A stretch of 64,000 nt of DNA, taken from contig CAVOHZ010000001.1 of the NCBI GenBank assembly GCA_963695855.1, forward strand, positions 1 through 64,000. Direction: 5' to 3'. The position numbers and the translations under genes were made by a program. Below, piece by piece: positions 34,020 through 36,982 of this stretch. Origin of the DNA: an uncultured Nitrososphaerales archaeon. Its GTDB lineage: Archaea > Thermoproteota > Nitrososphaeria > Nitrososphaerales > Nitrososphaeraceae. Every line of letters starts with the position of its first letter. Positions within the stretch are counted from its first letter, which is position 1. Under the pieces are notes generated by a model that saw only the letters and a program-made list of their open reading frames with translations, made no database searches and was not told where the DNA came from.

Positions 34020-35204
34020 TTGTTCTCAAGATCAAGAGAAAAGTATTCATTGATAAGTAATGGTAACTATCACAATAACTTGAGAATCTGGTTCGATATT
34101 CTTACTCCCAAACAGATAATGTTCTTCAAATATTTTGTTGAAGAACTGGAAGAATCTGGACATGAAATATTCTGTACTGGGCGAGACTACAGAGAGGCAA
34201 TAGAGTTAGCAAGAATAAAAAAAGTAAGAATAAAAATAGTTGGCAAACATGGAGGAAATGACAGATATGAAAAATTAGTAGCTAGCAGTGAAAGAATTCG
34301 AAAACTTGCAGACATTATCAACTCCTTTGAACCTGATCTAACTGTCTCCTTTTCCTCCCCAGAAGCTTCAAGAGTGTCATTTGGATTAGGTGTAAAACAT
34401 TATATCTTCAATGATTCTCCACATGCATTGGCTGTAGCGAAACTAAGTGTCCCAATTTGTGACCGGCTTTTCTGTCCATGGATTATACCATATAAGGCAT
34501 GGTTATGTCTAGGAATTAATAGAGAAAAAATTACTAGATATAGAGCAATTGACCCTGTTGTCTGGCTAAAAAGAGAGATGGAAAAAATTAAAGAATGTGG
34601 AGGATGGTCAACTACAAGATCGAAGAAAAATAAAACAGGCCAATTCACTATCTTAATTAGGCCGGAAGAAGTAAAGGCATCCTATATAACAGATAACAAG
34701 AATCTGAAAAATTCTGTAACATTGATTGATAGTATTGTTAAAAATTTTTCCTTGTACTCTAAGGTATTGATTTTGGGAAGATACCAGGATCAAATAGATT
34801 TTTTCAAACAGAGATATGAAAATAAAGTTCAAATGCTCGAAAATGTAGTGGATGGAACCTCGTTATTAAGAGAAATAGATCTGTTTATTGGTGCTGGAGG
34901 TACTATGAGTGCGGAGGCAGCATTACTTGGTAAACCAGTCATTTCTATTGCACCTATTAGCTTTTACGTGGAAAACTTTCTTATAAGATGCGGACTTGTA
35001 AAGAAAATCAGAAATGAAAAGGAGTTAACCAGGTATACGCACAACATTTTCTCTAAAATTAAAAACGAGAAAAAATATTTTAAAAATAACGATAGACTAA
35101 AAAAATACAAAGTACCGGCATTTCAAAAAAGATTGTTTGAAAAATCTTTAAAATTTATAGATAGCATGGAAGATCCAATAATTCAATTTAAGAAATTTAT
35201 TTGA
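34020..35204 (+). CDS. DUF354-family GT-B fold protein
   Basis: IWFDILTPKQ, VGKHGG, FSSPEASRVSFGLG, GAGGTMSAEAALLGKPVIS. Confidence 0.85.
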   Translation: MFSRSREKYSLISNGNYHNNLRIWFDILTPKQIMFFKYFVEELEESGHEIFCTGRDYREAIELARIKKVRIKIVGKHGGNDRYEKLVASSERIRKLADIINSFEPDLTVSFSSPEASRVSFGLGVKHYIFNDSPHALAVAKLSVPICDRLFCPWIIPYKAWLCLGINREKITRYRAIDPVVWLKREMEKIKECGGWSTTRSKKNKTGQFTILIRPEEVKASYITDNKNLKNSVTLIDSIVKNFSLYSKVLILGRYQDQIDFFKQRYENKVQMLENVVDGTSLLREIDLFIGAGGTMSAEAALLGKPVISIAPISFYVENFLIRCGLVKKIRNEKELTRYTHNIFSKIKNEKKYFKNNDRLKKYKVPAFQKRLFEKSLKFIDSMEDPIIQFKKFI

Positions 35205-35252
35205 AATTCATAACATTATAATTCAAGTTATTAATACGAAATAATGCCCGGA

Positions 35253-35350
35253 AGCCCGGTGGAGGGAAAAATAAATTTCCCGTCGAGTGTAGCGGCCAAG
35301 CATAAAGGCCTTTGGAGCCTTTGACCCCAGTTCGAATCTGGGCCGGGCTA
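35253..35350 (+). tRNA. tRNA-Gln(UUG) with a 25-nt intron (35263-35287) between positions 10 and 11
   Basis: Spliced product AGCCCGGTGG|TGTAGCGGCCAAGCATAAAGGCCTTTGGAGCCTTTGACCCCAGTTCGAATCTGGGCCGGGCTA folds as a cloverleaf: acceptor AGCCCGG/CCGGGCT, anticodon stem AAGGC/GCCTT, T-arm CCCAG-TTCGAAT-CTGGG. Confidence 0.92.
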
Positions 35351-35473
35351 ATTTTATGTAGTGCAATTAATGTTTCCGTTCATTTAGAACTTAATATCTG
35401 AATTACCTAATATTAATAAAACCTAAAAAAATATATTTCTTTCTCATTTTAAAGACACTATTAATAAAAAATA

Positions 35474-36982
35474 TTATTTATCGGATTTACATTTTTCAAT
35501 TACAAGTTGTCGGAGATTTTTAAAAGCCTCATCTACCATAGTAATTCTTTGAGATAAGATATGTTCTGTATCTATAAGTAAATTTTCTATTGATTCCAGC
35601 ATTCTTTTCTGTTCATTCGGATTCGGAGAACCTGTTGATTTTTTTAAGTAAATAGAATTTTCTGAAATTGTGCCTCTAATGATTGTATGTAAATCATCTG
35701 TATCTATATGTATATTAATAGAATCAAGGATCTTTGAAAGTTCTTCCTTTGGAATGTCCTTTAAACTAATACTATTGTTATTTTTTATCACATATTGTAC
35801 AAGATGTCCTACCAATTTGTGAGCTTGCCGAAATGGAATATTGTATTTCATCACCAACTGTTCAGCAATATCTAAAGAGACCGCATAGCTCTTATTAGCT
35901 TGCTCTAATGCGATGTTTTTATTCACTTTAAATGTATCTATTATCCCTACCATTATTATCAAAGAATTTGTTACTATAGCAGTAGATTTCCACAATAAGG
36001 GTTTGAGATCCTGCAGGTCTCTACTATAACCAGTTGGAAGGCTCTTTATTATTGTCAATGCTGAAAGGAGATTGCCGGTAACAATAGATGAATGTGAACG
36101 TAAAATTTCTAAGGGATCTGGATTTTTCTTTTGTGGCATTACACTCGATGTTGAACTATATTTGTCTGCAAGTTCGATATAATTAAATTCTGAAGTAGAC
36201 CAGAGAATAAAATCTTCGGCAATTCGACTTAAGGAAGTCATTAAGATTGCCTGTGAAGATAAAAATTCGATAAGTACATCTCTAGAACTAGTAGCATCAA
36301 TGGAATTGTCTACCAGTCCATCAAATCCTAGCAGAGAAGCGGTGTATTTTCTGTCTATAGGTATGCTAGTACCACCAATTGCACATGCACCCAAAGGAGA
36401 TTTATTTATCCTATCAAAAATCATATTAAAGCGTTCGAGATCTCTTAACAGACTGTAAGAATAAGATAGTAGATAGTGAGAATACGTGCCTATTTGTGCC
36501 TGCTGTAAATGAGTATATAGAGAGACAATCGTTGTTTGATATTCTTTTGATCTCGCTATCAAGGATCTTAGTAGGTTAATTATGAGGTTGGATATAACTA
36601 GGAGGTCATCCCTTGTTTTCATTATAATATCTAATGCCACCTGGTCATTTCTGGAACGTCCTGTATGCATCTTACCACCCACTTCTATGCCTATATTTTG
36701 GGTTACTACTGCTTCAATCTGTTCATGAATATCTTCAGAGGAATCTGATGATAGTATCTTTCTAACCTTCGCCTGATCAATATAATTATCCTTTAGTTCA
36801 CTTAAAGAAGAGAGAAGTCTTGATAATTCTTGATGGTCTAAAATTCCAATTTTGTTTAACATGATACAATGTGCTTGAGTTCCAACAATATCGTAATAAA
36901 ATAAGTTAATATCATCATCTAGGGAAGAAAGATAATCAAGAACATTTTTATCTAGATTTTCGGTCTGTCTAGATCTATACAA
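35474..36982 (-). CDS. argH: Argininosuccinate lyase
   Basis: EDIH, MHTGRSRNDQV, YTHLQQAQ, STSSVMPQKKNPD. Confidence 0.95.
   Translation of the reverse strand: MYRSRQTENLDKNVLDYLSSLDDDINLFYYDIVGTQAHCIMLNKIGILDHQELSRLLSSLSELKDNYIDQAKVRKILSSDSSEDIHEQIEAVVTQNIGIEVGGKMHTGRSRNDQVALDIIMKTRDDLLVISNLIINLLRSLIARSKEYQTTIVSLYTHLQQAQIGTYSHYLLSYSYSLLRDLERFNMIFDRINKSPLGACAIGGTSIPIDRKYTASLLGFDGLVDNSIDATSSRDVLIEFLSSQAILMTSLSRIAEDFILWSTSEFNYIELADKYSSTSSVMPQKKNPDPLEILRSHSSIVTGNLLSALTIIKSLPTGYSRDLQDLKPLLWKSTAIVTNSLIIMVGIIDTFKVNKNIALEQANKSYAVSLDIAEQLVMKYNIPFRQAHKLVGHLVQYVIKNNNSISLKDIPKEELSKILDSINIHIDTDDLHTIIRGTISENSIYLKKSTGSPNPNEQKRMLESIENLLIDTEHILSQRITMVDEAFKNLRQLVIEKCKSDK

Follow-up and report, generated by a model that had tools for sequence, protein, structure and literature searches.

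The gene for tRNA-Gln(UUG) in the window, the whole 64-kb stretch of DNA that we analysed, carries in its 5′ leader a copy of its own 5′ acceptor strand and, ten bases into the tRNA, an intron. The leader copy, which we call the decoy, is conserved among relatives, and it probably acts as a cis-acting surrogate 5′ acceptor strand that holds the 3′ strand while tRNA-Gln is being spliced. We observed the anatomy of the gene, the co-conservation of intron and decoy, their covariation with the acceptor stem and the energetics predicted for the precursor; from these we infer transcription of the leader, pairing of the decoy in vivo and a processing order in which splicing comes before 5′ trimming. 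A pairing of the leader copy with the 3′ acceptor strand that would free the real 5′ strand had been put forward in a first-pass annotation of this DNA, and the idea finds support in the co-conservation, in a concerted change shared by two relatives (L028 and L088) and in the folding calculations.

The window is AT-rich, with a G+C content of ∼30%. The host genome contains a gene for the archaeal ammonia monooxygenase subunit A, and the host is therefore an ammonia-oxidising archaeon. The tRNA-Gln(UUG) gene is contiguous and collinear, and is the single tRNA gene between a DUF354-family gene and an argininosuccinate-lyase-like gene (Table 1). A match to CRISPR-DR44 on the minus strand at 35146-35172, at the end of the DUF354 gene, scores 21 bits against a cut-off of 35 (E 0.85); it is weak and most likely a chance match.

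Table 1. Positions in the window of the tRNA-Gln(UUG) gene, its parts and its neighbours.
Feature	Position	Strand	Remarks
DUF354-family gene	ends 35204		5′ neighbour of the tRNA-Gln gene
Promoter-like block CATAACATTATAAT	35209-35222	+	conserved within the genus
TATA-like octamer	35215-35222	+	-38 to -31 relative to tRNA base 1
Leader decoy GCCCGG	35246-35251	+	copies tRNA bases 2-7; complements 3′ acceptor bases 66-71
Spacer of 1 nt, decoy to tRNA base 1	35252	+
tRNA-Gln(UUG) gene	35253-35350	+	contiguous, collinear
Exon 1, tRNA-Gln positions 1-10	35253-35262	+	AGCCCGG at 35253-35259, then U8, G9 and G10 at 35260-35262
Splice-helix 5′ strand CGGU, tRNA bases 5-8	35257-35260	+	inside exon 1
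Intron of 25 nt, position 10/11	35263-35287	+	last two bases AG
Inner hairpin of the intron, 6 bp	35264-35269 / 35276-35281	+	constrained fold
Central-helix 3′ strand GUCG	35282-35285	+	in the intron
Exon 2, tRNA positions 11-73, anticodon UUG	35288-35350	+	D-arm resumes at 35288
3′ acceptor strand CCGGGCU	35343-35349	+	complements AGCCCGG at 35253-35259; discriminator A35350
T-run directly 3′ of the tRNA	35352-35355	+	likely transcription stop
Argininosuccinate-lyase-like gene	35474-36982		convergent

When positions 35263-35287 are deleted by coordinates, ARAGORN recovers a canonical 73-nt tRNA-Gln(UUG) cloverleaf starting at 35253. With the intron in place, ARAGORN positioned the gene wrongly at 35278-35349, with a poor acceptor stem, and the Rfam match was restricted to 35286-35342 (model positions 9-63); both the erroneous call and the partial match are due to the intron. 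An A1-U72 pair and A73 are typical of archaeal tRNA-Gln. In the tRNA-Gln genes that we parsed from relatives, U72 ends the 3′ strand and the discriminator is A in all but one (G in L145). The first tRNA base is A35253, not G35254, and the repeat therefore corresponds to tRNA positions 2-7. In some orthologues the last base of the intron is A, U or C; G10 is therefore part of exon 1, and the intron lies at position 10/11. Oligo-T tracts serve as terminators in archaea, and the T-run that follows the tRNA is a likely stop of this kind.

In a constrained fold, CGGU (tRNA bases 5-8) pairs with GUCG in the intron to form a central helix of 4 bp, and the 5′ cut is carried by a 3-nt bulge, G9-G10-A, between this helix and the 6-bp inner hairpin. 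No outer BHB helix was found past the 3′ bulge (A-N-U11), where only C4-G12 could pair and C3-U13 cannot, nor was one found that would make use of the leader. Lacking an outer helix of 2 bp or more, the motif is relaxed (HBh′) rather than strict (hBHBh′), and by this predicted structure the intron is a member of the relaxed BHB (HBh′) class of archaeal tRNA introns. It resembles other members of the class in being short, in lying outside the anticodon loop and in its 4-bp central helix, 3-nt bulge and inner hairpin. As in other relaxed-BHB systems, removal of the intron leaves a normal tRNA, and the genome encodes two EndA paralogues. These match PF01974 in open frames of 188 and 132 aa, sizes that fit a putative pair of catalytic and structural subunits. 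Thaumarchaeota possess an alpha2-beta2 endonuclease according to a review (PMC4090602), and PMC6379350 states that relaxed motifs, known from D-loops and T-loops as well as from acceptor stems, are cut only by (alpha-beta)2 and epsilon2 endonucleases.

All four pairs of the central helix can form in 96 of 99 intron-bearing genes, and three pairs can form in the others (L066, L120 and L121); in the gene of the window this helix is unusually weak, with two G.U pairs. Because bases 5-7 are also needed in the acceptor stem, the splice helix cannot coexist with a complete acceptor stem. That the splice motif requires bases 5-8, three of them shared with the acceptor stem, had been pointed out in the first-pass annotation, and the sequence and the fold both agree.

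The two copies of GCCCGG, at 35246-35251 and 35254-35259, are separated by AA (35252-35253). Their occurrence in otherwise AT-rich DNA, as originally described, is confirmed by the sequence and its base composition. On both strands together, the window contains this hexamer three times, each time at the tRNA-Gln locus: as the leader copy, as tRNA bases 2-7 and, in reverse complement, at 35343-35348 in the 3′ acceptor strand. By expectation it would occur 1.8 times per window, and the chance of finding the hexamer in a given 20-nt upstream stretch is ∼3 in 10,000. We also screened the genome for tRNAs using a T-arm plus acceptor filter, which 38 candidates passed, some of them false positives. 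A strong duplex between leader and 3′ strand was found in just two of the 38, both of them tRNA-Gln genes (-13.9 and -9.9 kcal/mol), the next-best duplex having an energy of -6.0 kcal/mol. No copy of the acceptor strand was found in the leaders of the other intron-bearing tRNAs of this genome. The restriction of the decoy to tRNA-Gln suggests that the element is tied to introns that compete for the acceptor strand, and not to introns in general. Six bases make a short repeat, of a kind that could arise by chance; given its placement in the window, the genome-wide uniqueness of the duplex and the conservation of the copy in relatives, a chance origin is next to inconceivable.

The genome also contains a tRNA gene with a D-loop intron on the plus strand of contig 10 (640840-640930), which has a partial Rfam match and a leader without an acceptor copy. 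In addition, several tRNAs of this genome are followed, 8-12 nt from their 3′ end, by G-rich trailer segments that resemble their own 5′ strand, with ATATAC-like bases next to them (examples lie on contig 8 near 2830, and on contig 10 near 1147430, 689250 and 1611155). These trailers occur at intronless and intron-bearing tRNAs alike, and may be able to fold back on the 3′ acceptor strand as a hairpin.

The second tRNA-Gln gene, with anticodon CUG, lies outside the window, on the minus strand of contig 10 at about 631150-631290 (locus L112:58-190), and was overlooked by both ARAGORN and Rfam. It has three introns: one at 10/11, one in the D-loop and one next to the anticodon. In the 10/11 intron, CGGU pairs with GCCG, and the leader contains AGCUCG, which complements bases 67-72 with one G.U pair. 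A family-wide search found the CUG gene in 71 of 71 genomes, and a 10/11 intron together with a leader of the AGCUCG kind is present in all 30 CUG loci fetched from the family, although the hairpins in the introns are not related in sequence. We also noted an intronless CUG-type tRNA-Gln (L107, genome G072) whose leader contains a perfect 6-bp hairpin, GUCUGG ... CCAGAC.

BLAST searches found the gene in 36 of 41 related genomes, and its 3′ exon in 371 of 401 genomes of the same order. Loci were chosen so as to span as many genera and families as the hits permitted, and included a sample from other orders of the class. The parsed set, after removal of duplicates, comprises 158 distinct tRNA-Gln gene copies, drawn from 137 genomes that represent 82 genera in 25 families; two loci that the parser could not read (L155 and L175), repeat fetches and two endonuclease loci were omitted. 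We scored a decoy as present when at least six contiguous pairs with bases 66-72, at most one of them G.U, could be formed within the 25 bases upstream of the tRNA. One locus (L029) has just seven leader bases before the contig end, yet is scored as lacking a decoy.

According to this score, 97 of 102 intron-bearing tRNA-Gln genes (relatives and paralogues taken together) have a decoy and five do not, and only two of 56 intronless genes have one, the remaining 54 being without. A joint conservation of leader duplicate and intron had been named beforehand as a check on the proposal, and it is what these counts reveal. The five intron-bearing genes that fall short carry weakened decoys, with an inserted base in L067, one mismatch in L122, two G.U pairs in L125 and L132 and a one-base deletion in L165; none is wholly without complementarity. 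Duplex energies of -9 kcal/mol or lower were found for 101 of the 102 intron genes, against 6 of the 56 intronless ones. Since the sampled species are related, the gene counts are not independent, and p-values from Fisher tests on them exaggerate the association. Split by genus, for genes with a U-R-G start of the D-arm region, the data cover 76 genera, of which 38 have both intron and decoy, 35 have neither, two have the intron only and one has the decoy only.

A stronger point is provided by four families in which the intron is polymorphic. The numbers of genes with and without the intron are six and one in f4, one and three in f12, four and 19 in f13, and one and three in f20, the last belonging to another order of the class; in each of these families the decoy follows the intron, the two being gained or lost jointly. 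The spacer between decoy and tRNA is mostly 1 nt long across relatives, and measures 2-4 or 9-11 nt in some. Such variability (1-11 nt) agrees better with a competitor strand than with an invariant component of the motif.

The sequences of the decoys vary in a manner that points to the 3′ acceptor strand as their partner. L028 and L088, which come from two genera of family f15, have C-G in place of G-C as their sixth acceptor pair. The acceptor strands of these genes read AGCCCCG/CGGGGCU, their leader copy is AGCCCCG, and in the intron strand GCGG replaces GCCG. All four partners have changed in step, a compensatory change. The other variant decoys (GUCCGG, GCUCGG, GCCUGG, AGCUCG, AGUCCG and AGCUUGG) differ from the tRNA strand by C-to-U substitutions only, so that pairing with the G-rich 3′ strand is kept in the form of G.U pairs. 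No G-to-A variants of the decoy were found among the parsed genes, and the single mismatch among decoys, in L122, is a C-to-A substitution. Both the covariation and the C-to-U pattern are predicted by pairing with the 3′ strand, and neither is predicted by a DNA repeat or a protein-binding site.

Other partners and roles for the leader copy were considered and rejected. A duplex with the real 5′ strand, formed via the palindrome CCGG, does not agree with the decoys of L028 and L088 (GCCCCG), which lose the palindrome and keep the complementarity to the 3′ strand. Pairing with the 3′ segment of the intron is weak, amounting to at most three pairs in the gene of the window, and the leader AGCUCG of the CUG gene lacks the bases needed for it. 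Nor can the upstream copy be the true exon 1 in this genus: the base that precedes it is U, which would create a U-U72 mismatch, and bases 8-10 would not be supplied by any splice product.

Two intronless genes retain a decoy. In L104 (genome G054) a full leader copy lies 25 nt upstream of a gene without the 10/11 intron, and in L154 (genome G460) 9 of the 10 bases that begin the tRNA recur in the leader. A second intron was sought by eye in L104, with its distant copy, and no convincing motif was found. Both genes may represent recent intron losses. Their copies look like relics, and the direct repeat adjoins its source; one could accordingly regard the leader copy as an evolutionary leftover, a small functionless duplication dating from the origin or a move of the intron. 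We consider this quite improbable, as the copy has persisted across the order, and in one family belonging to another, despite complete divergence of the flanking leader and the intron loops. The compensatory change in L028 and L088, the variation restricted to C-to-U and the repeated loss of the copy after loss of the intron likewise argue against a functionless duplication.

The promoter-like block upstream of the gene is near-invariant in 21 orthologues from the same genus, while the neighbouring bases vary, and ATTATAA(A/G)-like boxes are found at an equal distance in other intron-bearing families. The TATA centre of archaeal promoters usually lies about 26 nt before the transcription start. 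Applied to the TATA-like octamer, this spacing predicts a start near 35244-35247, where the decoy begins, and we take a position near 35245 as the predicted start. In family f13 the promoter box ends at -22 to -25 in 14 intronless genes, and at -25, -28 and -29 in three intron genes; the spacing was extracted by a regular expression that missed two of 19 loci (L072 and L075, by eye near -24 and -29). This shift suggests that the leaders of decoy genes are longer by roughly the length of the decoy. A copy sitting at the predicted transcription start could also be a DNA-level or protein-binding element, such as an initiator, a promoter-proximal site or a site for a factor that also recognises the tRNA 5′ strand. 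However, the copy is absent from the other tRNA promoters of the genome, it stands anywhere between 1 and 11 nt from the tRNA, it has changed together with the acceptor stem in L028 and L088, and it tolerates C-to-U and not G-to-A changes. Such an element is, in our estimation, highly improbable.

The energetic effect of the decoy was assessed by folding the precursor of the gene in the window (35253-35350), with the start of the leader set at 35244. The minimum-energy fold of the precursor with leader (-40.8 kcal/mol) already has the leader paired with the 3′ strand; the conformer with the normal acceptor stem has an energy of -40.0 kcal/mol, and the best conformer with the splice helix, which uses the decoy, has an energy of -36.3 kcal/mol. 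For the leaderless precursor, the minimum-energy fold is at -39.7 and the best splice-helix conformer at -27.4 kcal/mol. Forming the splice helix in this gene costs 4.2-4.5 kcal/mol with the leader, 12.0-12.3 kcal/mol without it and 8.6 kcal/mol with a shuffled leader. The pair probabilities between the decoy and the 3′ strand are 0.71-0.74; for the central helix they do not exceed 0.004 even when the leader is included, so that the splice conformer is not favoured. A comparison of folds with and without the leader had been proposed in the first-pass annotation, and its outcome is in line with the expected help from the leader, the cost falling from ∼12 to ∼4.5 kcal/mol with the splice conformer still above the minimum. 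These calculations come from a model that ignores tertiary structure, proteins and co-transcriptional folding.

The same procedure, extended to 99 intron genes, gives a median cost for the splice helix of 0.0 kcal/mol with the native leader, 4.9 kcal/mol without a leader and 2.9 kcal/mol with a shuffled one; as the shuffled leader provides part of the benefit, some of the effect is due to composition. In 80 of the 99 genes the splice helix is cheaper by more than 3 kcal/mol with the native leader than in the leaderless precursor. In the model the leader is of no help in L099 (1.5 against 0.0), L120 (2.2 against 1.6), L122 (4.6 against 4.9) and L067 (0.0 against 0.1).

Several of these results count against a surrogate strand that assists splicing: in the gene of the window the splice conformer remains 4.2-4.5 kcal/mol above the minimum fold, L104 and L154 have a decoy without the intron, and the decoys of five intron genes are weakened. 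The same pairing might serve another purpose, namely keeping the precursor tRNA-shaped, protecting its 3′ end, or blocking RNase P, CCA addition or charging until the intron has been spliced out. The helix between leader and 3′ strand would then act in quality control or as a scaffold, and not as an energetic aid to the splice helix. The minimum-energy fold indeed pairs the leader with the 3′ strand with or without the splice helix, which in the gene of the window is unfavourable in the model even in the presence of the leader, and the association of intron and decoy fits such a purpose equally well. However, in most relatives the splice conformer is the minimum-energy fold only with the native leader (medians of 0.0 against 4.9 kcal/mol), and no other intron-bearing tRNA of the genome has a leader of this kind. 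We consider a purpose other than assistance to the splice helix unlikely.

If the decoy does stand in for the 5′ acceptor strand during splicing, its action can be pictured as follows. The leader, exon 1 and the intron would be transcribed first, and the splice helix could form at once. About 60 nt later the 3′ acceptor strand would emerge and pair with the free decoy, so that the splice helix would not be displaced; GCCCGG in the leader would satisfy acceptor bases 66-71, and the real 5′ strand would stay in the splice helix. The endonuclease and the ligase would then remove the intron. Thereafter the real 5′ strand, with seven pairs and contiguous with the tRNA body, would displace the six-pair decoy, and RNase P would trim the leader. 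In Methanopyrus kandleri, according to PMC3695527, the ends are trimmed before the intron is removed, and a splicing-first order would therefore be an exception.

The arrangement is reminiscent of split and permuted tRNA genes (Nanoarchaeum, Thermofilum, Cyanidioschyzon), in which, as described in PMC4090602 and PMC4033280, a leader outside the mature tRNA pairs to give the endonuclease substrate. The partner of the leader is there a trailer, and the leader belongs to the BHB itself and is cut away by the endonuclease. The tRNA-Gln decoy, in contrast, would pair with the 3′ acceptor strand of the mature tRNA, is no part of the motif and would presumably be removed by RNase P. A split or permuted tRNA was rejected as an explanation for this locus, the gene being contiguous and collinear and the complement of the leader being the mature 3′ acceptor strand. 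In bacterial pre-tRNAs, too, pairing of the leader with the 3′ acceptor side alters processing and slows RNase P, as reported in PMC9433436. The bacterial leader extends the real acceptor stem, whereas the tRNA-Gln decoy would take the place of the real 5′ strand and goes together with an intron.

Transient pairing of a leader that is later discarded is also known from the leader-assisted folding of precursor rRNA and from attenuators with mutually exclusive helices. The RNAs and enzymes involved are different, and the likeness to the tRNA-Gln decoy is one of analogy only. The literature covers non-canonical introns and the leader-trailer helices of split and permuted tRNAs, and tRNAscan-SE 2.0 has a dedicated thaumarchaeal intron model, as far as the accessible texts go. 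A leader element that replaces the 5′ acceptor strand in splicing is not described in the available parts of PMC4090602, PMC3218864, PMC4033280, PMC8450103, PMC6379350, PMC3728597 and PMC3241643. Our full-text literature search, the scope of which stopped short of Marck and Grosjean 2003, Sugahara 2008 and Tocchini-Valentini 2005, found no description of a leader decoy.

In tRNAs with introns near the 5′ end, one set of bases is needed for the acceptor stem and for the splice signal alike, a folding conflict for which the literature that we searched has no answer. A conserved leader decoy that covaries with the acceptor strand is a simple solution to this conflict. It is conceivable, although on balance somewhat doubtful, that spare acceptor strands reflect a general and hitherto undescribed rule in archaea, under which introns with a splice helix that takes up the 5′ acceptor strand (positions ∼3/4 to 10/11) need a decoy in cis and are spliced before RNase P acts. 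If such a rule holds, the leader would be a disposable, built-in RNA chaperone, and the presence of a decoy could help annotators to locate true 5′ ends and introns that are otherwise hidden. ARAGORN and Rfam mis-called the UUG gene and missed its CUG paralogue; if the decoy acts as proposed, it would give gene finders a signature to work with. The decoy is short, open to compensatory mutation and found in relatives of cultured ammonia oxidisers, which makes its role directly testable. Should that role be confirmed, the order of processing of decoy-bearing tRNAs would be reversed relative to Methanopyrus and eukaryotes, and the 5′ leader of some archaeal tRNAs would be a functional part of the precursor and not just a stretch to be trimmed.
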